Part shown: positions 13,215 through 42,700 of the stretch, piece after piece
Position numbering within the stretch: the first letter of the stretch is position 1
Layout of the letters: each line of letters opens with the position of its first letter
Source of the DNA: Rhodobiaceae bacterium
Lineage (GTDB): Bacteria; Pseudomonadota; Alphaproteobacteria; Rhizobiales; Aestuariivirgaceae
Direction of reading: 5' to 3'
Length of the DNA: 64,000 nt
Assembly: GCA_031417195.1 (NCBI GenBank)
Contig: JANOVC010000026.1
Coordinates: 23,100-87,099 of the forward strand
The notes under the pieces: model-generated
The model's database searches: none
The model's input: the letters and a program-made list of their open reading frames with translations, nothing else
Told to the model about the DNA's origin: nothing
Program-made: the position numbers and the translations under genes

Positions 13215-14897
<1,683 letters not shown>

Positions 14898-14917
14898 AGG
14901 AAGGCCCCAAATTTCAT

Positions 14918-14966
14918 CCCCTTCTCCTGTTCTGCGAAGAAGAATGGGAGAAGGTGCCCGAAGGGC
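14918..14966. repeat. Truncated alphaproteobacterial palindromic repeat (CCTTCTCC...GGAGAAGG-GCCCGAAGGGC type)
   Basis: Stem CCTTCTCC 14920-14927 / GGAGAAGG 14947-14954, then hairpin GCCC-GAA-GGGC; lies just after the leuA stop. Confidence 0.6.
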
Positions 14967-15008
14967 GCTGGCGAGATTTCATATCCCCAAGCGCTTCATG
15001 GTTGGGTT

Positions 15009-15031
15009 TGGTCGGCATTGACCAGGACATC
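15009..15031 (-). repeat. Possible degenerate copy of the main REP-like repeat
   Basis: TGGTCGGCATTGACCAGGACATC matches TGGTCGGGCTTGACCCGACCACC at 17 of 23 positions; adjacent 14997-15010 matches CATGGTCGGGCTTG at 12 of 14. Confidence 0.4.
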
Positions 15032-15054
15032 GTACCGCTAGTTTCAATTAGAAG

Positions 15055-16095
15055 TTACTGCTTTGTACACACTGCTCTAAATTGTCCGCAGAAAAGCTTG
15101 TAGTCGCCGCCCGTGCGCGCGTATGCGCAGTTAAAGTCCTCTCTATGGGCAGCACCTGCCGTGACAAGTCTATCACCTACATATTCAAATCCTTCTAAGT
15201 GGTAATTTGGATAGCGTGCTGTTAAGCCTACGTTACCAACCGTATTCGGCCCGCATTCAGGCGTACCTTCTGTGCCAACTCCTCCTTCGTGATATACACC
15301 TATTCGCGGTTTTAAGACCTTCCAATAATAGCTATCAGCTGTTTTTGCGTTGCACGTAGCAAAATCCTTATTGTTAGCTTGTTGCCGAAATTCTAAGCAT
15401 GTTGTCTCCTGCGGCGGCGGCGTTTGAGGTGTCAAAGCCTTTGCAATGAAGGCTGTGCAAGCTGCCCCGGCACCTGCTCTTTTTATGTTGATTGTGATGC
15501 TTTTTGCCTCAGTACCAATAGCCTTCGTATACACGAATGTGTCACCGAGAGGAAGCTTGGAGCCAATTTTTAGATCTGTGCTGTCATAAATTACGTTTCT
15601 CGATGCTTTGACCGACCGTATTTTTGTCGGCCCGTTTGTATCACTAGAATGTCTTATGCGGAGCACTGGTTCACTTGATTCATTGTCAAATACACATACC
15701 AATGGTTGGCGCGACACGCATTCAACGTAGAGCGCCCGGGCTTCAATAGGAATAACCGCTACCGACGATTGAGACAAAGAAGATGCTGCTTCTTCCTTCG
15801 TAATGTCGCGACACTCCTTTTTTTGCGCTTCTCTGTATTTCTGGTTGTTAAATTTTCCAAATCCGCTGATTGAAAAATACGAACCCCCTGTATCTGCACC
15901 ATACGTATCGACGAATTTTTGATAGTCTAAAAAACACATTGCATCCCGGAAATATGTCCGAGTTCGTACGTCAGTCATATCAGTTTTAATGTTAGGCGAT
16001 AACAACTTTTCGCTGCAAATTTCTTGCGCTTTGACAGCCAAAGGACATGCAAGGAATAATGTGAGTAGTGCCGCTTTGAACTGAAGAGAAACCAT
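15055..16095 (-). CDS. Secreted Cys-rich hypothetical protein (AT-rich DNA)
   Basis: RBS GGAGG before ATG 16095; signal peptide MVSLQFKAALLTLFLACPLAVKA; 12 Cys in the mature part; no family recognised. Confidence 0.75.
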   Translation of the reverse strand: MVSLQFKAALLTLFLACPLAVKAQEICSEKLLSPNIKTDMTDVRTRTYFRDAMCFLDYQKFVDTYGADTGGSYFSISGFGKFNNQKYREAQKKECRDITKEEAASSLSQSSVAVIPIEARALYVECVSRQPLVCVFDNESSEPVLRIRHSSDTNGPTKIRSVKASRNVIYDSTDLKIGSKLPLGDTFVYTKAIGTEAKSITINIKRAGAGAACTAFIAKALTPQTPPPQETTCLEFRQQANNKDFATCNAKTADSYYWKVLKPRIGVYHEGGVGTEGTPECGPNTVGNVGLTARYPNYHLEGFEYVGDRLVTAGAAHREDFNCAYARTGGDYKLFCGQFRAVCTKQ

Positions 16096-16275
16096 TGTGT
16101 CCTCCACCAAACATTTTGTTGCACAGAGAAAACATACACCAAATTCATCGCCAGTGAAAATTAAATTTATGAGCAATTGGCCTGCCGCCGGGACTATGTT
16201 GACAGAGCATTCAATCAACGTTCCTCAAGGCCCACTCTCTACTGCACACATCAATGGTGCAACTTGCCAACTTGT

Positions 16276-16797
16276 CTAAGGATTGCAAATGACGGTAAAG
16301 CTGGTCCAGCCACACTGACCCCCGCCAACACTAATGTTGTGAATGAATTTGGAGGGAGCAATCTGTAACTTTCCGTCTTCGGTATACTCGCAAAACTGTT
16401 TTACAAGAATTTCCTGAGTTTTAGGACCGCCGCCACCAATCTTATCGTATTCGTCACAAGTATAGTACGCATCGACACCATTGGCACATGATGGTCCACC
16501 TCCATTCCCAGCACAAACCTTATACCTTTGCGTCGCATGATTTTGAATTTGCATTGCAGACGCCGCTTTTTCTTTAACTGAAAAAACTAACCCGCCAAAA
16601 CCAACCAAGAGGAGAACAAGAGTCGTTAGCTTGTAGCGAGGATCCTTCTCTTGGTGGAAAAAAGCTATCGCGATAGCGCCAAGCACAAGCACAAGCACAA
16701 TAAGTGCTATGATACCGAGTTGGCTTGCTGCAGCTTCCTTAATTATGGAAGGCCAATCCAATTTAGAAGCGGCTTCAGTTGCTCCCATCTCATTCAC
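16276..16797 (-). CDS. Membrane-anchored hypothetical protein with a Cys/Gly-rich C-terminal domain
   Basis: Two N-terminal TM helices, then a 6-Cys domain (VCAGNGGGPSC...GGGQCGWTSFTVICNP); AT-rich DNA. Confidence 0.7.
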   Translation of the reverse strand: MNEMGATEAASKLDWPSIIKEAAASQLGIIALIVLVLVLGAIAIAFFHQEKDPRYKLTTLVLLLVGFGGLVFSVKEKAASAMQIQNHATQRYKVCAGNGGGPSCANGVDAYYTCDEYDKIGGGGPKTQEILVKQFCEYTEDGKLQIAPSKFIHNISVGGGQCGWTSFTVICNP

Positions 16798-16859
16798 CCA
16801 GACTTGTGATAGATTACTTAATATACGAGTAGGGGCAAAAAAGCATTAAGTTATTTTTA

Positions 16860-17156
16860 TCACGCCGCCCGCTTCACCACCGTCTTCTTGACGCTCATCT
16901 TCACAGTCAACCCAGCTCTCGTTGCAAGTGTCGTCAGCGTATCAAGGCTGAACTTGCTGATTTTGCCGCGCAGCAAATCATTGAGGCGGGGGCGGGTGAT
17001 GCCTAGACGCTTGGCGGCCTCAGCTTGCGAGAGGTTCCAAGCGGCCACACTGCGTTCAATGCTGGTCATCAAATCCGAACGCATCGTCATGTTGATGGCG
17101 TTGGCCTCGTTGGCTTCAAGCGCAAACCACACATTGTCAAATTTCTCGTGTTTCAT
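16860..17156 (-). CDS. XRE-family HTH antitoxin (HigA-like)
   Basis: LSQAEAAKRLGITRPRLNDLLRGKISKFSLDTL helix-turn-helix; ATG 17156 follows the toxin stop with RBS AAGGAG. Confidence 0.9.
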   Translation of the reverse strand: MKHEKFDNVWFALEANEANAINMTMRSDLMTSIERSVAAWNLSQAEAAKRLGITRPRLNDLLRGKISKFSLDTLTTLATRAGLTVKMSVKKTVVKRAA

Positions 17157-17160
17157 GGTG

Positions 17161-17490
17161 TCACTCCTTTGCAATCTGGCGCAAGCGCGCTTGCACCAAG
17201 TCAATATCGCGCTTTGGTGTTTTCTGCATTTTCTTGTGGAAGGAATGCAGCACATAAATTGTGGTGCCGATATTCGCCACATAGATGACGCGGAATTCGC
17301 CCGGCCTGTCTGAAACCCTGATCTCGCGTACGCCCTTGCCAATGCTTGGCATGGGCTTCCAGTCCACAGGGTCTCGGCCTTCCTGAACCCGCACCAACTC
17401 GCGGCCTGCATCGCGCCGCGCATCTTCAGGAAAATCCCGAAGGCGGGTGAGCGAATCTCCAATGAACACAACAGGTTTTCGAACGGTCAT
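17161..17490 (-). CDS. Type II toxin, RelE/ParE superfamily (Gp49/HigB-like)
   Basis: DWKPMPSIGKGVREIRV, FRVIYVA, IYVLHSFHKK..KTP; toxin-first order with an XRE antitoxin. Confidence 0.9.
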   Translation of the reverse strand: MTVRKPVVFIGDSLTRLRDFPEDARRDAGRELVRVQEGRDPVDWKPMPSIGKGVREIRVSDRPGEFRVIYVANIGTTIYVLHSFHKKMQKTPKRDIDLVQARLRQIAKE

Positions 17491-17497
17491 TGTTTAA

Positions 17498-17519
17498 TGT
17501 GTATCAGTATTGATACACA
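17498..17519. promoter_or_regulatory. Probable TA operator, perfect inverted repeat TGTGTATCA-GTAT-TGATACACA
   Basis: 9-4-9 palindrome 8 nt upstream of the toxin ATG. Confidence 0.75.
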
Positions 17520-17557
17520 AAAACAAGTGCTTTTTGAATTGGCGGTTTATGACCCCC

Positions 17558-17983
17558 TCAATACATCATCTGCTTGCCCTTCGAAATCTTGAACCCATGG
17601 GCGTCGTCGTTGATGCATTCGAGGCCTTGCTTTGTGACGGTGCAGACGATGCCGTAGAAATCCAGTCGCTTGCCGTAGGGCAAATTGACTGCCTCGTTGT
17701 TGCGCAGCGTGTCTCCGGCGCAGACCATGGTGGCTTTGCCGTCGTTCTTCAACGCAAAGCGGCTGCCCCAGTCGAGGTCGCAGTCGGCGGGTTGGGGGCG
17801 CAGGGGCTCCTTGTTGGTTTGCGTCAGCAACTCGCAGTCAATGGTGGTGCCTTTACCCGACACTTCGCCATAACAATAGATGTTTTTCGATGGGGTGTGG
17901 AAGAGTGTGGTTTCGTTGGCGTGGGCTGCGCTTGCTGCCATGATGAGGGCCGCTGCGGTTGCGAATACGCTTAAGGTTTTCAT
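17558..17983 (-). CDS. Secreted hypothetical protein (DUF6636-like)
   Basis: Signal peptide MKTLSVFATAAALIMAASAAHA; F.TPS.NI.C, C..DWG, L.YG, C....GL.C...HGF motifs. Confidence 0.75.
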   Translation of the reverse strand: MKTLSVFATAAALIMAASAAHANETTLFHTPSKNIYCYGEVSGKGTTIDCELLTQTNKEPLRPQPADCDLDWGSRFALKNDGKATMVCAGDTLRNNEAVNLPYGKRLDFYGIVCTVTKQGLECINDDAHGFKISKGKQMMY

Positions 17984-18041
17984 GCTGTCATCCGTCCTTG
18001 ATGCAGGCACTATGTCAGGGTGGAGATTTGGGATCAAGATG

Positions 18042-18077
18042 CTGGGTGGTCGGGTCAGGCCCGACCATGGAGAGAAT
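18042..18077 (+). repeat. REP-like palindromic repeat, copy 1
   Basis: CTGGGTGGTCGGGTCAGGCCCGACCATGGAGAGAAT; core hairpin TGGTCGGG-N5-CCCGACCA; near-identical to the copies at 56-57.6 kb. Confidence 0.9.
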
Positions 18078-18136
18078 TTGGGAACCATGGCGAGTTTGGT
18101 GAGAGAGGATAAAGAGACAAAAATTATTTTCCTAAA

Positions 18137-18152
18137 TGTTCTTTACATGTTC
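18137..18152 (+). promoter_or_regulatory. Alphaproteobacterial LexA (SOS) box TGTTC-N6-TGTTC
   Basis: TGTTCTTTACATGTTC is an exact GTTC-N7-GTTC direct repeat in an AT-rich, promoter-like intergenic stretch. Confidence 0.65.
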
Positions 18153-18588
18153 CTTTTGTAGGAGTACATACCCTCTCGATGGTTTCCGGAAAGGAGGGGA
18201 CAGTGTCGACAGCGTCTCGAAATTGCCGGAACCATGGGCAGCGCCTGCGGGCTTGGGGAATTCACGCGCCCCACACCCCCGGGAGCCAAGGGCAAGACCC
18301 GTGGATACTACGATCCACGCGCCTTAAATGGCAAAGCAACTTTAGCGGAAAACACCAGACACCGTGCGATCTAAAGCTCTGTAAGCGCGAACCCCTGTCA
18401 CAAATCGCTGCGTTCCTCAAAATTCGCCAACGCTTTTCCGGAAAGTCTTCCAGCCTTCTGGGCGTGGGCGGATGTCGGGCTTTAAGCCGAACCACCAAAA
18501 CACTCAAAAACCACCGCATATGCCGGCTTGAAGCCTGGACGGGAACTTCCCCTCCATTTTATTTTCCCCATCATTCGAGGGCACCGCC

Positions 18589-19095
18589 ATGACCACAGAA
18601 AAAACCGTCTTTGTACGGATTAAAAAATCCAGATCTTCCAAACCATGCCCGCGCGTTTCGCACGAGCCGTGGTCGGGCTATACGCGCCATGACGCGCCGC
18701 GCAGGGTTGCATTGCCGCTCTGTCCCGCACCGCGCTGCCGCCGCGCCAGGCAATGTGCCGCAGCCCATGACGAGCTCTATTGCCAGCGCACGCATTTTTC
18801 GAAGCCTGAGCAGGTGAAGTGGCAGCGCAACCACCCCTTGCGCCGCGCGCTTGATGCTGTGCCTGAGGTCATCAATCCCACTGATCTCACAGAGCGGATG
18901 GAGCGCGTTGCGGAGCTGGCGGGCATCAAGCGCGGTTACGCAGCGGACATGACTAAGCGTTGGAAGGCAGGCGAATTTGATGCGCTCTATGGCAAGTACA
19001 CGGCCAAGGGCGTGATCAAGAAACCACCGCCGAAAATTTACGTGGACGCCGCCTTGTCCAGCGCCACGCAGACGCGCGTCAGGGCCTTGGGGTAA
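18589..19095 (+). CDS. Basic, Cys-containing hypothetical protein (possible Zn-binding C-x4-C-x5-C motif)
   Basis: 168-aa ORF with RBS GAGGG; CPAPRCRRARQC...YC motif; its 3' end overlaps purN convergently by 58 nt. Confidence 0.55.
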   Translation: MTTEKTVFVRIKKSRSSKPCPRVSHEPWSGYTRHDAPRRVALPLCPAPRCRRARQCAAAHDELYCQRTHFSKPEQVKWQRNHPLRRALDAVPEVINPTDLTERMERVAELAGIKRGYAADMTKRWKAGEFDALYGKYTAKGVIKKPPPKIYVDAALSSATQTRVRALG

Positions 19096-19631
19096 AGCTT
19101 GTGTTCCTGGGCCAGCACGCGGGCGTTCAGGCTTTCCACTGTGTCGCCCTCGAAAATCAGCACCTGGGTCTGGGCGATGATGGCGCCGGAATCGAGCTCG
19201 TGGGTTACATAATGCACGGTGCAACCGTGGACGGGGGCGTTGTCGGCAAGGGCCCTCTCATGGGTGCGCGTCCCCTTGTAATGGGGCAGGAACGAGGGGT
19301 GGATGTTGATCATGCGGCCCGCCCACGCGTCAATCATCACAGGCGACATCACGCGCATGAAGCCGGCGCAGGCGATGATGTCGAGGTTCTGCTGCTGCAG
19401 ATACGCGTTGAGTTCCGCGTCGAAAGCTTCGCGCGTGGCGAATGTCTTGTGGTCGATTGTCTTGGCGGTGATGCCGTGCTGCGCCGCGTATTCAAGACCG
19501 CCTGCATCGGGGCGGTTCGACACGACGCAGATGATTTCGGCAGGGTACGAAGGTGCGCGTGCCGCGTCCACAAGGGCTGCCATATTGGAGCCGCGCCCGG
19601 AGATGAGAACGCCAACGCGCTTCTTCTTCAT
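19038..19631 (-). CDS. purN: Phosphoribosylglycinamide formyltransferase
   Basis: [36 protein letters not shown]; ATGA overlap with purM. Confidence 0.97.
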
Positions 19632-20716
19632 GCCTTCACGCTGAGGGCGCCGGTGATTGCCACTTGCTCCTCGCGGCCACGGCGCTTGCGCAGCGCACCG
19701 AGGGTGACCACATGCTCGCCGGATTTCTTGAGAGCGGCGGCGATGGTCTTGGCGTCCTTTGCTTTCACCACCACAATCATGCCAATACCGCAGTTGAAGG
19801 TGCGCAGCATTTCGCGCGTCGGTGTGCCGCCCACGTCTTCGAGCCATTTGAACACGGGCAGATATGGCACCGCATCGAGGTTGATCTCGGCCACGCAGCC
19901 CTTCGGTAACACGCGCGGAATGTTTTCGAGAATGCCACCGCCGGTGATATGGGCCAGCGCCTTCACGGATTTGGTTTTCGCAAACAGCTTGAGGAGGGAC
20001 TTCACATAAATCCGCGTGGGCACCAGCAGCGCCTCGCCCAGCGTCTTGCCTTTGGCGAAGGGGGCAGGGGCGTCATAGGCCACACCGCTCATCTCCACGA
20101 TTTTGCGGATGAGGGAATAGCCGTTGCTGTGCGGGCCGGAGGAGGCAAGCCCGAGGATCACATCACCGGGGCCAACGTTCTTCGCGGGCAGAATGCGTTT
20201 GCGCTCCACGGCACCCACGGCAAAGCCCACAAGGTCGTAATCCTTGCCGTGATACATGCCGGGCATTTCAGCCGTCTCGCCGCCGATAAGCCCACAACCC
20301 GCCTGTTTGCAGCCATCGGCAATCCCTGCAATCACCTCGCGGGCTTGGGCCACATCGAGTTTTCCGGTTGCAAAGTAGTCGAGGAAGAACAGGGGTTCAG
20401 CGCCTTGTACAATGAGATCGTTCACCGACATGGCGACGAGATCAATGCCGACGCCGTGATGTATGCCGGTTTCAATGGCCACGCGCAGCTTGGTGCCCAC
20501 GCCATCATTGGCGGCCACCAAAACCGGGTCCTTGTAGCCACAGGCCTTCAAGTCAAACAAGCCGCCGAAGCCGCCAAGCGCCGAATCAGCACCCTTGCGC
20601 TTCGTGGATTTCGCCAGCGGCTTGATGGCATCCACCAGCGCGTTTCCGGCGGAGATATCCACGCCTGCGTCGGCATAGGTCACGCCGGTTCGTTTTGCTT
20701 GTTTGCTCTCGCTCAT
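19628..20716 (-). CDS. purM: Phosphoribosylformylglycinamidine cyclo-ligase (AIR synthetase)
   Basis: [61 protein letters not shown]. Confidence 0.98.
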
Positions 20717-33684: not shown

Positions 33685-34407
33685 TCAATGGCCTCCTTCA
33701 AGGTAAGCTGCCCGCACTTCCGGACGTGACAGAAGCTCCTTGCCAGTGCCTGAAATCGTGATCGCTCCGTTTACCATCACATAGGCACGATGGGCGAGTT
33801 TGAGCGCGTGGAAGGCGTTTTGTTCAACGAGGAAAACTGTGAGGCCTTCTTTCTCATTCAATTCCTTGATGGCATTGAAAATGAGCTTCACAATCAGCGG
33901 TGCCAAGCCGAGGGAAGGTTCATCCAGCAAGAGCAGGCGAGGGCGCGCCATCAGAGCGCGGCCAATTGCCAACATTTGCTGTTCGCCACCAGAGAGGGTA
34001 CCACCGCGTTGGCTCTGGCGCTTTTCCAGCACGGGAAACATTTTAAAAATGCGGGCAATGTCCGCGTCAAAGTATTGCGGGTCAGCAACGGTGGCGCCCA
34101 TCTGCAGGTTTTCCAGAACGGTCATGCGCGGAAAAATGCGGCGGCCTTCGGGAGACTGTGCAATGCCCATGCGGATAATTTCGTGGGTTGGCGTTTGGGT
34201 GATGTCTTTGCCGTCAAAGGTTATTGAGCCGTGACGGGCGCGGGGTGAGCCGCAAAGTGTCATCATCAGCGTTGATTTGCCAGCACCATTGGAGCCAATG
34301 AGGGTGACGATTTCGCCTTGTTTCACATCAATATCGATGCCTTTGAGGGCTTGAATTTTACCGTAAAAGGCCTGCACACCGCGGGCCGTGAGGAGGGCGT
34401 TGGTCAT
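33685..34407 (-). CDS. livF: Branched-chain amino acid ABC ATPase
   Basis: [36 protein letters not shown]. Confidence 0.95.
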   Translation of the reverse strand: MTNALLTARGVQAFYGKIQALKGIDIDVKQGEIVTLIGSNGAGKSTLMMTLCGSPRARHGSITFDGKDITQTPTHEIIRMGIAQSPEGRRIFPRMTVLENLQMGATVADPQYFDADIARIFKMFPVLEKRQSQRGGTLSGGEQQMLAIGRALMARPRLLLLDEPSLGLAPLIVKLIFNAIKELNEKEGLTVFLVEQNAFHALKLAHRAYVMVNGAITISGTGKELLSRPEVRAAYLEGGH

Positions 34408-35360
34408 TTACGTCCTCCGGTCTTTTTAGGCGCCGTCTTTTTCGCAGGAACTTTCTTCCGTGCGACTTTCTTGGGTGCCGCCTCTTTTGCGGGAATTTCC
34501 TTGTGACCGATCAACATGACTTCGGGTGCCACGTCCGCTGCTTCTTCCTCATCTTCGACGCCGAGGTATGCACGAATAACGGCGGGATCATTTTTCACCA
34601 TTGACGGCGAGCCATCGGAGATTTTCTGGCCATAATCCAAGACAACAACGTGATCCGAGATTCCCATCACAACGCTCATGTCGTGCTCGATTAGAAGAAT
34701 GGCAACATCGTGGTCGCGGCGAATGCCAAGCAGCAACTTATTAAGTTCTTCAGATTCGCGCGGATTAAGACCGGCGGCGGGCTCATCAAGGCACAGCAAC
34801 AGGGGGTCAGTACACATGGCGCGGGCGATTTCAAGACGGCGCTGGTCACCGTAGGGCAAGTCTCCGGCGGGATCGTCGGCGCGGTTCATGAGATTGATTT
34901 TATTGAGCCAGTATTTTGCTTTCTCAATCGCCGCATCCTCAGCGCGTTTGTAAAACGGGCTGCCAAAAATACCTGCTATGGTAAAGCCAGAGGCCTTCAT
35001 CAGGACATTGTGCTGGGCCACCATAAGATTTTCCAGAACAGTCATGCCCGAGAACAGGCGGATATTTTGAAATGTGCGCGCGACTTTGGCGTGACGCGTG
35101 ATGATGAAGTCATCCATGCGCTCAAGCAGGAACTCTTTGCCATCGGGATGGCGCAGGTTGATCATGCCCTCCGATGGTTTGTAAAAGCCCGTGATGCAGT
35201 TGAACACGGTGGTTTTACCCGCACCATTGGGGCCAATGAGTGCCGTAATCTGCTTGCGCGCCGCACTGAATGACAGTTCTGAAATGGCCGTCAAGCCGCC
35301 AAAACGCATTGTCAGCCGCTCCACCTGGAGTACGGCATTTGTATCCCAGGTTGTCATCAA
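34404..35360 (-). CDS. livG: Branched-chain amino acid ABC ATPase with a Lys/Ala/Pro-rich tail
   Basis: [39 protein letters not shown]. Confidence 0.95.
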
Positions 35361-36751
35361 CCATGCCCCTGCGAAACGAGATCGGCAGACACTGCCTTCT
35401 TCTCCTTGAGGTAAACCGTGGGGTCACGTTTGGTAACAAACCCACGAGGGCGGAAGCGCATCATCAACACCATGGCAAGGCCTACGGCGAGCATGCGGAA
35501 CTGGATCGGGTCTGTGCCAGTTGGAAGTATGGCTTTGAGGAAATCCATTTCGCGGAAGAGTTCGAATGAACCCATAATGGCGATGGCTGAAAACACGATG
35601 CCGATTTGCGAGCCCAAACCGCCGAGAACAACAATGGCAAGGATGATCGCTGATTCGAGATACACAAAAGACTCTGGCGACACAAAGCCTTGGCGGGCGG
35701 CGAAAAAGCTTCCTGCAAAGCCACCAAACATTGCGCCGATCGCAAAAGCAGTAAGCTTGGTATTGGTGGTGTTGATGCCCAACGCGCGACAGGCGATTTC
35801 ATCTTCGCGCAACGCTTCCCATGCGCGGCCGATTGGCAAGCGGCGCAAGCGGTTGGTCACAATAAAAGTAAGAAGGGCAAGTGCAAGAATGACGTAGTAG
35901 AGGAAAATATAGAAATGAATGCGGTCATAGGGAATGTCAAAGAAGGCCGCAAAACCACCCGGATCATCTTTGAATGGTAGTCCAAAGAAAGTTGCCTTTG
36001 GAACAATAATTCCCTGTGGGCCATTGGTAAACGCAAACCAGTTCACCAAAACAAGACGGATGATCTCACCGAAGGCCAATGTTACGATTGCAAGGTAATC
36101 GCCCCGCAAACGCAATACTGGAAAGCCCAGAACAATCCCCCACGTTGCAGCAAGGAGGCCCGCCAACGGGAGTGTTAAATAGAAAGCCCAGGGAATGACA
36201 CCCGCACCGAACCATTGTGGCAAATAGATTGTTGAGAGCAGGGCGTAAGCATAGGCACCAACGGCGTAGAATGCGACATATCCCAGATCGAGAAGGCCAG
36301 CGAGACCGACCACTATGTTCAGGCCCCATCCCAGCATGATGTAAGTGAGAACGTAGATGGCAAGATCAATAATGCGCTTGTCACTGCTTGGAAACATGTG
36401 TGCGACGAAGGGCAAAATCAGGGCGACCACCAGCATTATGGGGCCTATGTATTTTCCGATTTGTGATGAGATGGATGGAGTTGCGCTGACGGCCTTCGAA
36501 GGTTTTGACGTTTCAATGCGGTTCCATACAAAAAGATGGAACATCAAACGGCCAACGACAACAATGGCGGCCAGCAACATAACCAACGGCCAACGCGTTG
36601 AAAGCGAGAGTGAACCCTGATCAAGAGTCGTTCTGAATGCCACAATCGGAATAAGAATTAGCGCTGTGATTATGCCAGACCCAACGACGTCCTTGGCTAT
36701 TGCAGGCCAGTCATACGGTTTCGTAGTGGGCATATTTTCAGATGACGACAT
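35357..36751 (-). CDS. livM: Branched-chain amino acid ABC permease
   Basis: [42 protein letters not shown]. Confidence 0.95.
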
Positions 36752-36753
36752 TG

Positions 36754-37689
36754 TTAAACTTTCTCAACAGCAGGTTTGCCGAGCAAGCCTTGCGGCATGA
36801 AAATGAGCACAATGACGAGAAGCGTGAAGGCTGCCACATCTTTATACTCAACTGTGAAATAGGCTGACCACATGACTTCAACGAGGCCGATGATCAATCC
36901 GCCGAGCATGGCACCGGGAATGGAACCGATGCCGCCAAGCACGGCTGCGGTGAATGCCTTGATGCCTGCTAGAAAGCCCACGAAAAAGTCCGTGTTGCCA
37001 TAATAGAGGAGGAACAGGATGCCAGCGAAGGCAGCGAGGGCCGCGCCCATGATGAAAGTGATGGAAATGGTACGGTCCACATCGATGCCAATGAGAGCAG
37101 CCATTTTCATGTCCTGTTCGCAGGATCGTTGCGCGCGGCCAAGTGCCGTACGCTGGATGAGGGCAGTGAATATAGCCATCAATACGAGTGTTGAAATGAT
37201 GATGATGATCTGCATGTTTGAAATGCGGACAATGAATTCGCCCTTGTCACTGGCGCGGTGCATGATTTCGAAGCCACCATTGATTATGGGGTGAATTGGT
37301 TTCGGACGGCCTTCCTGGGCAACGCGCACAAATTCCTGCAATACGATCGACATGCCGATAGCTGAAATAAGTGGTGCCAAACGGAATGATCCGCGCAGCG
37401 GTTTGTAAGCGAGCCGCTCTATTGACCAATTGTATGCTGCAGCAATGATCATGGCGATTACAACAATAACAGCGAGTGCCAGGATCAACATGAATGCACC
37501 GGTACCGCCTGTTACGCCAAAGGCGAGGATGACAATGAACGCAACCATGCTACCCACCATAAATACGTCGCCGTGGGCAAAGTTGATCATACCGATGATG
37601 CCGTAAACCATCGTATAGCCGATGGCGATAAGACCGTAGATGGAACCGAGTGTAACGCCGTTAATGAGCTGCTGGAGAAAATACTCCAT
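36754..37689 (-). CDS. livH: Branched-chain amino acid ABC permease
   Basis: [45 protein letters not shown]. Confidence 0.95.
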
Positions 37690-38060
37690 ACGCGCCCCCC
37701 TTTTTACTTACCTATGTTCGCAGCGCATAAGGTGGCTGCGTTTGTGAGGTGGTAATAGATGCTTCCAAAATTGAATACAAGCCACAATTAACAATTGATT
37801 TACTGTTTAATTTCAGTTGCTTCCAAATCAGGCAATGAAAACATGCCATTGCATAACAATTCAACAGGACAAATTTTAGGCGCTTAAGTGCCTAAAATTT
37901 ATACAATATTTTTTGCCGGTTGTGGAGATTGGGTTCTCATATACATTTAGTTACGTACAGTTACGAAGTTTCGTGTTGCAGTGCGAGATAATGCTTGACG
38001 TTAAGCCTACTCAAAATGTACCGTACTATATCGCTTCGTTATATATCGGATTGACATAGC

Positions 38061-38597
38061 ATGAATGTTCGAACTCTTTGCTTGGGTATCCTGTCTCTTC
38101 GGGAATCGTCTGGGTATGAAATCAAACAGGACGTTGAAGACGGCCTCTTCAGCCATTTCATTGATGCCAGCTATGGTTCGATTTATCCGGCCCTTAACCA
38201 GCTTGCTGTCGAGGGATTTGTGACGGTTCGTGCCGAGGAGCAAACGGGCAAGCCCGCCAAGAAAGTCTACAGCATTACAGAGTCGGGTAAAAACGCCCTT
38301 GCTCGGGCCATTTCTGTTGTGCCTGTGAAGGACAAATACAAGTCGGAATTTTTGTTTCAGATGCTCCTTAAAGACTACATGACGCCTGACATGATGTTGG
38401 TCGCCATTCAGAAGCAACTCGATGACCTCAACGAAGATCTCGCATGCATTGCTGTGTGCAGCCAAGGTGAACCGATATGTAATGGTGCGCGTTTTGTGGA
38501 GGAATATGGACATGCGGTGCTGACAGCAAGTGTCAAATGCTTGGAATATAAAAAAACAGAGCTTTTGCAGCAGATGGCTGCAAAGGCCGCAGAATAA
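38061..38597 (+). CDS. PadR-family transcriptional regulator
   Basis: SGYEIK, ASYGSIYPAL..L, KKVYSITESG. Confidence 0.93.
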   Translation: MNVRTLCLGILSLRESSGYEIKQDVEDGLFSHFIDASYGSIYPALNQLAVEGFVTVRAEEQTGKPAKKVYSITESGKNALARAISVVPVKDKYKSEFLFQMLLKDYMTPDMMLVAIQKQLDDLNEDLACIAVCSQGEPICNGARFVEEYGHAVLTASVKCLEYKKTELLQQMAAKAAE

Positions 38598-38614
38598 TTT
38601 GGAGACGTGACGAC

Positions 38615-39712
38615 ATGCGTAAATCGTACCTTTGGGCCACGGCCATAACGTTGGGCTTGGGCCTGTGGATGGCTTCTCCTTACATTATGCCAAAGCTGAC
38701 AGGCGTTCCGCGTGCAACTGAGGAGGCTGAGGCTCCAGCGGTAACCACTGCTGGAAAGCTCTTCAAAGTACGGGTCAAAACCTTCACAGCAGTCCCCCGT
38801 GTGGCTTTTGTGACGGCCAATGGAATCACGGCTGCGTCCAAACGCGTTGATGCGCGGGCGCGTACAAGTGGCATCATTCTCGATTCCAAATTCAAACAGG
38901 GTCAAAGTGTCAAGTCGGGGGATGTCCTCTGCCAACTCGATACCGGTGACCGTACCGCGCAAATGGTCCAGGCGAAGGCCTCGCTTGCCAGTGCGCAGCG
39001 CGACTTTGATGCGACACAAAAACTGGTAAAAAATTCATACAGCACACAATCCAAGCTTTCATCTGATCAAGCCCGGCTTGATGCCGCGAAAGCCGTGCTG
39101 ATTGGTTTTGAAACAGATATGGCCTATCTCGAAATCAAGGCTTCTGCCGATGGCGTTCTGATTGAGAAGCCTGCCGAAGCTGGCAGTCTTCTTGCCCCAG
39201 GCGGACTGTGCGCAACTGTCAGTGCGCTTGATCCTCTGCTGGTTGCCGTTCAGGTGAGTGAGTCCTACGTGCCTTATGTCATAGAAGGCATGGCTGCCAA
39301 GGCGACCCTCGCCACTGGCGAAACAGTTGATGGAAAAGTAACGTTCATTTCCAAAACCGCAGAGGTCACGACGCGGACATTCCGTGTGGAGTTGGAAGTG
39401 CCAAATCCAGGTGAAAAAATGCGCGAGGGTGTGACTGCAGAGCTATCTGTGCCGCTGCCGCCGCAAATGGCGCAGAAACTTCCGGGTTCGGTTTTGATCC
39501 TCAATGACACTGGTAAATTTGGCGCGCGGGTTCTCAACGATGCTGACCACACATCAAAATTCATGCCCGTCGACGTCATTGCCCAAGATCAGGATGGCAT
39601 GTGGGTAACCGGATTGGCAGACAGGGTGACGTTGGTCACAATTGGCCAAGATTATGTGCGTGACGGCGAAAAAGTGGAACCCGTTGTTGAAACCGCGGAG
39701 ATAACCCAATGA
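38615..39712 (+). CDS. RND efflux periplasmic adaptor (MFP) 1
   Basis: N-terminal TM, lipoyl/hairpin pattern, TRTFRVE, MREGVTA. Confidence 0.92.
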   Translation: MRKSYLWATAITLGLGLWMASPYIMPKLTGVPRATEEAEAPAVTTAGKLFKVRVKTFTAVPRVAFVTANGITAASKRVDARARTSGIILDSKFKQGQSVKSGDVLCQLDTGDRTAQMVQAKASLASAQRDFDATQKLVKNSYSTQSKLSSDQARLDAAKAVLIGFETDMAYLEIKASADGVLIEKPAEAGSLLAPGGLCATVSALDPLLVAVQVSESYVPYVIEGMAAKATLATGETVDGKVTFISKTAEVTTRTFRVELEVPNPGEKMREGVTAELSVPLPPQMAQKLPGSVLILNDTGKFGARVLNDADHTSKFMPVDVIAQDQDGMWVTGLADRVTLVTIGQDYVRDGEKVEPVVETAEITQ

Positions 39713-42700
39713 TTGGCTGGCTCGATACAATTCTAAGGCGGCCGCGCGCTGTTCTCTCAGCCATGCTCGTGTTGGTGGTGGCTGGGCTTCTCTCCTACAT
39801 GACCATTCCAAAGGAGAGCAACCCCAACATCACGATTCCGACGTTCTTTGTATCAACATCTATTTCAGGAATTTCGCCTCAAGATGCGGAGCGCCTGTTG
39901 GTCAAGCCTATTGAAGTAAAGCTGCGCGGTCTTGAAGGTCTAAAGCAAATCACAGCCTACGCAACCGAAGGCCGCGGTGCACTCATTGTTGAGTTTGAAA
40001 CGGATGTGAATATTGAAAAAGCTTCGCGTGATGTGCGCTTGAAGGTTGATGAGGCAAAGCCAGATTTGCCAACTGATGCGACAACGCCAGCCGTGGCCGA
40101 GATTAACCTGAGTTTAGAGCCTACAATTCTTGTGGCCATTTCAGGTGATGTTCCAGAACGCACGTTGGAGGCTCGATCAAAGGATTTGCAGGATGCCCTG
40201 CAGCGCATACCCACGGTTCTTTCGGCTGACCTCAAGGGCAAGCGCGATGAGGTTCTGGAGGTTATTGTCAACAAGCAGAAGCTTGAGGCTTATGGACTCG
40301 GACCCACAGATATCTATAACATTGTTTCACGGAACAACTTGCTTGTTGCTGCGGGCTCATCTGAAGGTTCGACAGGGCGATTCACTGTTAAAGTTCCCGG
40401 TCTCATACAGTCGCCGCAAGACTTGTTTGATCTGCCGATAAAGAGTTTTCAAGGCACTGTGGTGACCCTGAAAGACGTCGCTGATGTGCGTCGTTCATTT
40501 CAAGACCGCACAGATTATGCGCTCTATAATGGTCGACCTGCGATCACCGTCGAGGTGGTGAAGCGCCAAGGCACCAACATCATTGAAACCAATGCTGAGG
40601 TGAGGCGCGTTGCCGAAGAAATGTTAAAGACCTGGCCAACTGCAATGCATATCGATTACGCGCTGGATCAATCCAATACCATCAAAGACGTGCTGCAATC
40701 CCTGCAGGATGGTGTGCTTCTGGCCATCATATTGGTAATGATACTGGTCGTTGCCTCGCTTGGCCTGAGGTCCGGCATACTGGTCGGCATTTCCATTCCA
40801 ACTTCATTTCTCATCGGGTTCCTCATACTGGCGATTATGGGCTACACGCTTAACATCATGATCATGTTTGGCCTTATTCTGTCAGTTGGTATTTTGGTCG
40901 ACGGTGCCATTGTGCTTTCCGAATATGCCGACCGAAAAATGGCTGAAGGAATTGAGCCGAAGGAAGCTTATATTGCTGCTGCAAAACGCATGTTCTGGCC
41001 AATCGTGTCATCGATGGCTACCACGATTGCAGCATTTGTTCCCCTGCTTTTTGCTCCCGGCATTGCAGGCAAGTTCATGAGCTATTTGCCGGTTACCGTC
41101 ATCATTGTGCTTTCAGCTTCTTTGTTGACTGCCATGGTTTTTGTGCCTGCTGTCGGCTTTTTCATCGGCAAGACAGATAAGGAAACCATGGAACAGTTCG
41201 GCCATTTTGCCGATGACGAGCATGCAGATTTCCGCAAGATGAAAGGGCTCACGGGACTTTACCTCCGCTTTATTGAACGTATCATCCGCCATCCAATTTT
41301 GGTTAGTGTGGCTGTGTTGACGCTTATGGGTAGTATCGTTGCGACCTATGCAACACATCCAACGGGCGTTCAATTCTTTGTGGATACAGAGCCTGAGCAG
41401 GTCAATGTTTACGTGCGTGCCCGCGGTAATCTGGGTGTTGCACAGCAGCTCGCACTCACGCGGGAAGTTGAAGCCCGGGTTATCAAGGTGGATGGCATCA
41501 AGACCTATGCCACGTCGGCCGGAAAGTCTGGCGGCGGTGCACAGGGCAGCCAGGATATTCCGGCAGATGTTGTTGGTACAATTCAGCTGGAATTGCGTCC
41601 GGTCGGAAGCAGGAAACCCTGGAAAAAACTGAACGAAGAACTTGCTGCGATTGTGGCCGACATGGCTGGTATCATTGTCGAGGTTCGTCCATTGGAAGGC
41701 GGACCAACATCCGGCAAGGACATTCGCCTACAGATCACATCAAACGACAGGGACGCAGCATTTGCGGCAGCCCGAAAGATTGAAGCTCATGTGGTAGGCG
41801 GAATGAAAGGTATTGTCGATGTCGATGACGATCTTCCATTGCCTGGTTACGAATGGAGTCTTACGATTGACAGGGAAAAAGCGGGTCGATTTGGTGCTGA
41901 TGTTGCATCGGCGGGTACACTTGTCCAACTTGCAACAACAGGTGCAAAAGTAGGTTCCTATCGTCCCGATGACAGCAATGACGAAATCGACATTCGCGTT
42001 CGGTTGCCGGAGAACGAGCGGTCAATCACTGCAGTCAAGGACATTAAGCTGACGACTGCTGCTGGACTTGTTCCCATGTCCAACTTTATCAAATCTACCG
42101 CAGAGCCTTTGGTGAATGTGCTTTACCGGCTGGATGGAGTGCCTTCCGTTTTCGTCAAGGGCAATGTTGCACCGGGCATTTTTGCGGGCGACAAAATCAA
42201 GGAATTGGACACTTGGGTTAACAAACAGAAATGGCCAGAAGGCGTGAAGTTCAAATTCCGTGGCGATGATGAGGACCAGGCCAAGTTTGGCGCATTCCTT
42301 GTAAAAGCGATGGTTGCGTCCGTGTTTATGATCTTCATGATTTTAATTGTGCAGTACAATAGCTTCTACCATGTGATGATAACGCTTTCGACGGTGATCA
42401 TGTCAACGGTAGGTGTGCTGCTGGGCATGTTGGTGACCGGGCAATACTTCTCGATGATTATGACTGGTACAGGCGTGATTGCACTTATTGGTGTTGTGGT
42501 CAGTCACTCGATTGTGCTGATCGATACCTTCCATCGCCTGCGGGATGCAGGGCAGAATGGCATCGAAGCGGCCATCCGCACGTGTTCCCAGCGCATGCGG
42601 CCCGTGTTGCTCACATCAATAACAGCCATGCTCGGCTTGTTGCCATTGGCGCTTGAACTCAATGTGAACTTTTTTACACGCCACATCGTAATTGGCAGTG

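Follow-up and report, generated by a model that had tools for sequence, protein, structure and literature searches.

What placed a 3-kb block of five genes, all on the minus strand and two of them a toxin–antitoxin (TA) pair, between leuA and purN in a Rhodobiaceae bacterium (GenBank assembly GCA_031417195.1, contig JANOVC010000026.1; here contig C26 of genome G000)? We addressed this question in a stretch of 64,000 nucleotides of that contig (positions 23,100 to 87,099), which we call the window and to which positions without a contig label refer. A preliminary description had read the block as cassettes accumulated between the ends of a short hairpin repeat of the repetitive extragenic palindromic (REP) kind, with the TA pair stabilising the whole. 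Our analysis indicates that the block is probably the present filling of a long-lived variable slot, which extends from the 3′ end of leuA to a structured RNA element and its neighbouring gene orf168, and that this filling is a mosaic of modules. The gene content first described was confirmed, the open reading frames (ORFs) comprising a DUF6636 gene, a toxin gene, an antitoxin gene and two AT-rich genes (GC3, GC content at third codon positions):

13227–14897, plus strand: leuA (2-isopropylmalate synthase), the conserved left flank; protein 78–90% identical to homologs in Aestuariivirga metagenome-assembled genomes (MAGs)
15055–16095, minus strand: orph1, 346 aa, secreted, with a predicted signal peptide; GC3 0.40
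16276–16788, minus strand: orph2, 170 aa, membrane-anchored, with a 6-Cys C-terminal domain; GC3 0.40
16860–17156, minus strand: higA-like antitoxin gene, HTH_37 (Pfam E = 3.8e-21)
17161–17490, minus strand: higB-like toxin gene, Gp49, RelE/ParE superfamily (Pfam E = 1.7e-24)
17498–17519, no strand: perfect palindrome TGTGTATCA-N4-TGATACACA, read from the sequence, just 5′ of higB
17558–17983, minus strand: DUF6636 secreted protein with signal peptide (Pfam E = 1.9e-24); GC3 0.75
18038–18077, plus strand: intact hairpin repeat, putatively cognate to an Ssn nuclease (54.9 bits; fold −17.9 kcal/mol)
18114–18592, plus strand: structured RNA element (RNAel), multi-copy and promoter-bearing, the conserved right flank
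18589–19095, plus strand: orf168, a conserved Cys-rich protein that accompanies the RNA element; no Pfam match
19038–19640, minus strand: purN, after orf168

A variable slot between leuA and an RNA element

In this Aestuariivirga-like member of the Hyphomicrobiales, DNA homology to 24 congeners breaks off at the stop codon of leuA. Homology resumes at the plus-oriented repeat in genome G013 and at the RNA element in the other relatives. The leuA-to-purN alignment thus recovered variable DNA between conserved flanks, as had been anticipated, with a right boundary at the repeat in G013 only. In ten relatives with long flanks, the genes directly after leuA are absent from our genome. In five genomes (the window, G013, G019, L006 and L209), leuA is followed after 2.4–6.6 kb by the RNA element in the same orientation; an orf168 homolog stands behind the element in four of the five, and the L209 contig ends inside it. 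From leuA onwards, the filling in G013 comprises SMODS+DUF6602, ankyrin/cytochrome c, a cNMP-binding protein, PilZ and L,D-transpeptidase, and its last part is a Shedu gene between a minus- and a plus-oriented copy of the repeat. G019 has a minus copy of the repeat, a small membrane protein and HEPN_Swt1+DUF5343, L006 has an ABC-3C system, and L209 has TPR and cNMP-binding genes. Most of this cargo is low in GC (0.41–0.48). With conserved flanks, cargo that differs by genome and no mobility gene, the locus has the properties of an islet hot spot, one that gathers accessory and defence genes.

The RNA element at the right flank is 380–440 nt long and occurs in our genome in eight full and at least ten partial copies (at contig ends), with many more in congeners; over about 450 nt, copies share 90% identity. 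A TTGACA-type promoter, which a GTTC-N7-GTTC motif overlaps in our genome, and a U-tract terminator are part of the element. RNAalifold predicted a closing helix GGAGGGG/CCCCUCC and 69 pairs in all, with compensatory changes at 29 of the pairs. No family reached threshold in an Rfam scan of 14500–19500 at E ≤ 1; a match to PAGEV (24.6 bits; gathering score, 61.1) was treated as spurious. The element looks like an undescribed structured RNA family. A coding role was considered as well: each copy keeps one stop-free frame of 100–146 codons, which in the window copy (18179–18592) ends in ATGA overlapping the orf168 start (18589). We rejected this reading and took the element to be RNA, because identical nucleotides fall into different frames from one copy to the next, and reverse frames are often equally long. 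Homologs of orf168 (33–57% identity) adjoin the element in G013, G022, G010, G019 and L006. Further copies of the element lie at C69:38260–38700, C34:578–1018, C100:13188–13565, C15:45696–46065, C91:7153–7579, C90:30606–31029 and C29:2–365.

Modules within the block

The AT-rich character of two genes, noted at the outset, was borne out by their GC content and codon usage. GC dips to 40–48% over 15050–16850, covering orph1 and orph2 (host genome, 0.53), and the GC3 of 0.40 in these genes compares with 0.62–0.81 in all neighbours; the rest of the block (DUF6636, higB and higA) lies at 0.62–0.75. Counts in a promoter and terminator scan of the block did not exceed the shuffled-sequence expectation.

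Homologous tracts in other genomes divide the block differently from the repeat-to-repeat order first suggested. The tract 16860–17515, which is exactly higB–higA, is 72% identical to a tract in G013:C18. This pair recurs in eight congeners, at six or more different neighbourhoods; in G007 it stands, with one more gene, in place of a 139-nt spacer of our genome (C82:6778–6916), giving a filled and an empty version of one site. Five metagenome contigs (L123–L127) carry an HTH_37 gene followed by homologs of orph2 (88%) and orph1 (69%) in the same order, with unbroken DNA homology from 17109 to 15411 at 78% identity. These contigs are without higB, DUF6636 and leuA, and have a different palindrome 5′ of the HTH gene. 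The only overlap of these tracts is higA, which places the junction of TA and low-GC modules within that gene and not at 16795–16805, where an internal cassette boundary had been placed; that position falls inside a tract that is contiguous in another lineage. A DUF6636 homolog, 42% identical, was found in an unrelated context in G009. The mosaic comprises at least three separately travelling modules: the low-GC3 pair orph2–orph1 (linked to higA), the HigBA-like pair with its palindrome, and DUF6636. Such separate histories argue against repeat-to-repeat assembly.

The TA pair resembles a HigBA type II system. The toxin gene comes first, higB (17490–17161) and higA (17156–16860) form a tight bicistron with a gap of 4 nt, a toxin domain of the RelE/ParE superfamily (Gp49) is combined with a helix-turn-helix (HTH) antitoxin domain (HTH_37), and the palindrome upstream is a putative operator of the pair. 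The pair differs in that neither protein attains the equivalog cut-offs that NCBIfam has curated for HigA and RelE/ParE (TIGR02607, score 17.8 against 47.7; TIGR02683, 20.1 against 62.85), and in that the antitoxin gene is, in another lineage, contiguous with two secreted/membrane genes without the toxin gene. PADLOC returned no real match for the block proteins; the toxin alone gave a partial and weak match, to NsnC.

The pair and the RNA element also occur at corresponding places elsewhere. In G013 (L097, G013:C18) higBA adjoins orthologs of our C69 genes 40523–42164 and 39445–40467, and in G014 (L150, G014:C72) orthologs of C69 34386–36323. Between those genes our own C69 (stretch 34386–42164) has an RNA-element copy of 90% identity, palindromes of a second repeat family described below and an ORF of GC 0.40. 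As higBA in G013 and G014 corresponds to the RNA element in our C69, the two seem to mark the same hot spots.

The label "orphan" given to the remaining two genes proved too strong. While orph1 has no match in Pfam, NCBIfam or PADLOC, it has 54 remote representative clusters at E ≤ 1e-3, among which its N-terminal (about residues 10–230) and C-terminal (about 200–346) domains are shuffled. Its AlphaFold2 model (pLDDT 73.8) combines a confident helical bundle and Ig-like sandwich with a poorly modelled Cys-rich C-terminal domain, and a fold search returned only generic Ig-like sandwiches (query TM-score ≤ 0.2). The C-terminal third (15055–15411) has no homology to that of the closest relative and shares 59% identity with the C-terminus of a different member, so the family appears to swap C-terminal domains. 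The conserved 85-aa C-terminal domain of orph2, with six invariant Cys (VCAGNGGGPSC...GGGQCGWT), is common to nine other proteins. In the window, in L123–L126 and in the distant L160/L161, orph2 directly follows the HTH gene, and a distant homolog, P0012, is preceded by an Xre-type HTH gene; the arrangement hints at a functional link between the HTH gene and orph2. Given the remote clusters of orph1 and the recurrence of the six-Cys domain of orph2 in other proteins, we assign both to rare, uncharacterised extracytoplasmic families.

The hairpin repeat, its nuclease and its cargo

At the right edge, the intact plus-oriented repeat was found as described, separated by 58 nt from the start of DUF6636 (17983), and it is orthologous to the plus copy beside the RNA element in G013. 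Using a hidden Markov model (HMM) from five window copies, we counted 33 copies in our genome at E ≤ 1. The consensus of 17 aligned copies is AAGTCTGGGTGG-stem-loop-stem-CCATGGAGAG; the non-palindromic flanks are oriented, and the stem covaries (GGTCGGG/CCCGACC, GGCAGGG/CCCTGCC, CATCGGC/GCCGATG). The 33 copies form seven to eight tight doublets, three gene-enclosing pairs and 12 singles, and adjacent pairs are arranged minus then plus in all ten cases, with the AAGTCT ends inward. At three doublets (C46 from 4844, C89 from 3348 and, in reverse, C63 to 53574), a TAGTCCTTGACA promoter with a GTTC-N7-GTTC box follows 20–25 nt on, and behind it lies a multi-copy gene for a protein without known function (VDWAGVITLNSTALKPVIDTLF...).

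Of the three small GIY-YIG genes that our genome contains, one (C64:56930–57217, 95 aa) has the repeat on both sides. Its orthologs of at least 80% identity have a minus copy on the left and a plus copy on the right in four of four cases (G000 C64, G013 C20, G013 C4, G003 C56), independently of the strand of the gene, and none of about 20 paralogs (≤61% identity) is clearly flanked by the repeat, one weak match (E = 0.009) occurring in L187. Ssn nucleases with NTS or Ssn-related-motif (SRM) hairpin repeats have been described (Chenal et al. 2025, PMC11893778). The published SRM pattern, HGTCWYN(0-2)YYVSBRHN(0-5)WNVSBRGN(0-2)RNCYNB, matches none of our 33 copies; it has 30 matches genome-wide, all outside them. 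With four of four orthologs flanked and no pattern match, the repeat therefore behaves as an Ssn-related motif by gene association, yet is a sequence variant of SRM, and that same association makes it the putative cognate hairpin of one small GIY-YIG nuclease of the Ssn type. The other two small GIY-YIG genes, at C34:63938–64153 and C22:5346–5570, have hairpin families of their own (CGTCATCCCGACGAAAGTCGGGA... and CGTCATCCCCGCAATAAATGCGGGGATGAC); as each of the three genes has its own flanking hairpins, the genome may hold three nuclease/hairpin pairs. A REP system with a REP-associated tyrosine transposase (RAYT) was rejected: both Y1_Tnp genes of the genome lack the present repeat in their flanks.

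Do pairs of the repeat carry cargo? In G013 (L093 5268–6661) and in an Aestuariivirga MAG (L163 2803–4250), a minus and a plus copy enclose a Shedu gene (SduA_C). The two cassettes have 73% protein identity and unrelated flanks, homology being limited to the gene and its two repeats. In G013:C4 (L200 1416–2816), a 1.4-kb segment consists of the nuclease gene ssn between a minus and a plus copy, plus a low-GC gene; at the orthologous site of our genome (C72:4390/4391, L208) two convergent genes abut with no such segment. TTTAAA stands on either side of the repeat-bounded ssn unit in G013:C4, and the low-GC gene is bracketed by a direct duplication of 35–45 nt of the 3′ end of the neighbouring core gene (L200 1876–1925 and 2822–2870). 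Filled repeat pairs known to us are 0.3–1.7 kb long and hold one or two genes. Pfam and PADLOC gave no match for the cargo of two other repeat pairs of our genome. There is thus some evidence for the cassette idea as applied to the repeat family, support that the 3-kb block as a cassette lacks. Of the proposal that cassettes accumulated between repeat ends, the accessory nature of the block and the cargo-bracketing pairs elsewhere stood, and the repeat-to-repeat order at this locus did not.

The other repeat-like sites that had been pointed out in and around the block are as follows:

14918–14967, no strand: palindromic inverted repeat of a second family; unit AATGGGAGAAGGTGCCCGAAGGGCG, with a truncated inverted left arm
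15002–15038, minus strand: candidate decayed copy of the Ssn-cognate repeat, weak; hairpin lost
16795–16805, minus strand: 11 nt of the 5′ leader of orph2 that coincide with the repeat's inner end; probably a chance match

We scored 7.07 million positions with a position weight matrix (PWM) from 17 genomic copies. The left site scores −10.8 bits, a negative log-odds that is closer to background than to the repeat. It is within the top 0.0235% of positions, with 0.057 such matches expected per 157-nt spacer, and a gapped local alignment (CTTCATGGTTGGGTTTG against CTCCATGGTCGGGCTTG) matches at 14 of 17 positions, all three differences being C-to-T (p = 0.03 against 6000 random genome segments). 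At E ≤ 10, nhmmer did not report the site. On its score and its lost hairpin, the degenerate minus copy is not confirmed as more than a chance resemblance. In its favour, true minus copies stand 150–300 nt after leuA in L003 (= G019) and L004. The 11-mer lies where it had been placed. Our genome contains 54 exact consensus 11-mers outside recognised copies (0.048 expected per 3160 nt), the full-length PWM score around it equals background, and the homologous tract in L124 differs from it at two of 11 positions. It is probably a chance match. Both sites had been chosen post hoc, and scored with a model of the repeat they rise only nominally above background (the surroundings of the 11-mer not at all); each is nominally rare and neither is convincing.

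The truncated palindrome at the left edge, in turn, is real and belongs to a second multi-copy family, with about 12 partial or paired copies in our genome and many in congeners. In relatives these often lie just 5′ of RNA-element copies. Further copies are at C26:17611–17702, C69:36988–37159, C22:29511–29616 and C4:32280–32371; they usually form inverted pairs about 55 nt apart and are abundant in some congeners.

Weighing the explanations and known systems

In the reading that we consider probable, a long-lived slot holding a mosaic of modules, turnover would come chiefly from homologous recombination, acting within the conserved flanks and within portable stretches of homology (higA and the 90%-identical RNA-element copies), preceded by DNA uptake or transduction. 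The TA pair would disfavour loss of its DNA, and may also, or instead, act in phage defence. In Neisseria, Ssn cuts single-stranded DNA (ssDNA) beside the repeats, which lowers recombination there (PMC11893778); by analogy, the hairpins would be local sites of ssDNA breakage or recombination, or guards, and not ends of this block. Several points weigh against this reading. No empty or alternative slot was found in the same species, which leaves the direction and mechanism of turnover to inference: exact-protein look-ups returned two short contigs only, which derive from a single run (SRR20217190) and do not differ from the window, and a metagenome scan with LeuA found nothing above 86% identity. 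The two weak repeat-like signals (p about 0.03–0.06 each) fall where the cassette model predicts them, and the true minus copies just after leuA in two relatives would fit a repeat-bounded origin. DUF6636 and higBA, with their native-like GC3, could be old residents rather than imports.

A rival proposal, after the preliminary description, is that a repeat doublet was split and cassettes accumulated between its two parts; the left part and an internal end would since have decayed, and the TA pair would stabilise the array. The constant minus–plus polarity of adjacent pairs, the three pairs of our genome that enclose genes, Shedu between repeats in different contexts of two Aestuariivirga genomes, the ssn unit present in G013:C4 and absent at the orthologous G000 site, and the minus copies after leuA in L003 and L004 all agree with it; so do the predicted polarity and nominal rarity of the remnant and the 11-mer, and the coincidence of the GC3 step with the 11-mer. 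We nevertheless consider it unlikely, as the remnant has negative log-odds, no hairpin and no nhmmer hit, the 11-mer is at background by PWM and sits in a tract contiguous in L123–L127, filled pairs hold one or two genes in 0.3–1.7 kb rather than five in 3 kb, and 12 of the 33 copies are single, so that a lone copy needs no partner. A broader version, in which the hairpins are the two ends of a small cassette system and the block is an old multi-gene cassette with a decayed left end, strikes us as somewhat less probable still. Under it, the repeat-bounded ssn gene may be the autonomous unit, tight doublets its empty derivatives, the pairs around Shedu and other genes cargo derivatives moved in trans, and the leuA–RNA element slot a landing pad.

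A more serious competitor, although we would not bet on it, is that the repeat at 18038–18077 belongs to the RNA element, as an upstream hairpin or insulator or as an insertion target, and is uninformative about the block. The repeat family stands 18–101 nt 5′ of four of the 34 RNA-element copies with an intact 5′ end (window, C34, C90 and G013), a REP-like hairpin of another kind lies no more than about 50 nt upstream of roughly half of the remaining copies, and the junction of repeat and element is orthologous in G013; the intact repeat is linked to the RNA element at least as tightly as to the block. Yet intergenic DNA of the genus holds many hairpin families, and adjacency may reflect a shared site preference; the orientation is inverted at the C90 copy, and in G013 the copy in question also closes the Shedu cassette on its right side. 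That the block is ancestral core-adjacent DNA lost by relatives is improbable: the native-like GC3 of DUF6636, higB and higA (0.62–0.75) would fit, but orph1 and orph2 are at 0.40, the roughly 30 relatives examined carry none of the five genes here, and higBA lies at other loci in congeners. An integron-like cassette array is barely credible and was rejected. The single gene orientation, the TA pair and the ORFs of unknown function recall sedentary integrons, but a PF00589 search found no tyrosine recombinase, and hence no IntI type, anywhere on contig C26, the repeat lacks attC architecture and is paired with a GIY-YIG gene, and neither nhmmer nor the PWM found repeats between the genes. The window contains no tRNA or tmRNA genes, which rules out a tRNA-type integration site.

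The block itself is thus an ordinary TA-bearing accessory islet, and its surroundings hold more of interest: a slot in which members of a freshwater genus accumulate defence systems, a non-canonical hairpin family tied to one subgroup of Ssn nucleases, and first hints, from the polarity rule, Shedu in two contexts and one filled/empty site, that Ssn hairpin pairs carry cargo. If they do, Ssn would not only influence transformation, as reported, but also contribute to the mobility of cassettes or guard accessory genes.

Among known systems, the slot comes closest to the minimal mobile elements (MMEs) of Neisseria and other islets, which are exchanged between conserved flanking genes. It shares with them conserved flanks and genome-specific cargo without a mobility gene, and differs in that one flank is a multi-copy RNA element, not a unique gene; transfer by transformation and flank recombination would apply here by analogy. 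The repeat resembles REP sequences and bacterial interspersed mosaic elements (BIMEs), with their RAYTs, in being short, palindromic, intergenic and often arranged in inverted doublets, while its gene partner is a GIY-YIG nuclease. The likeness to Ssn/SRM extends to an oriented, intergenic, multi-copy hairpin with non-palindromic flanks and to a single-domain GIY-YIG gene of about 95 aa flanked on both sides. SRM-type repeats of Neisseria cluster beside accessory membrane-protein genes (PMC11893778). The present repeat differs by an extra 5-nt spacer between GTC and the stem, by its low number of only about 33 copies per genome, and by pairs that enclose cargo other than ssn (Shedu and unknown genes), with the ssn unit present at a site in one genome and absent in another.

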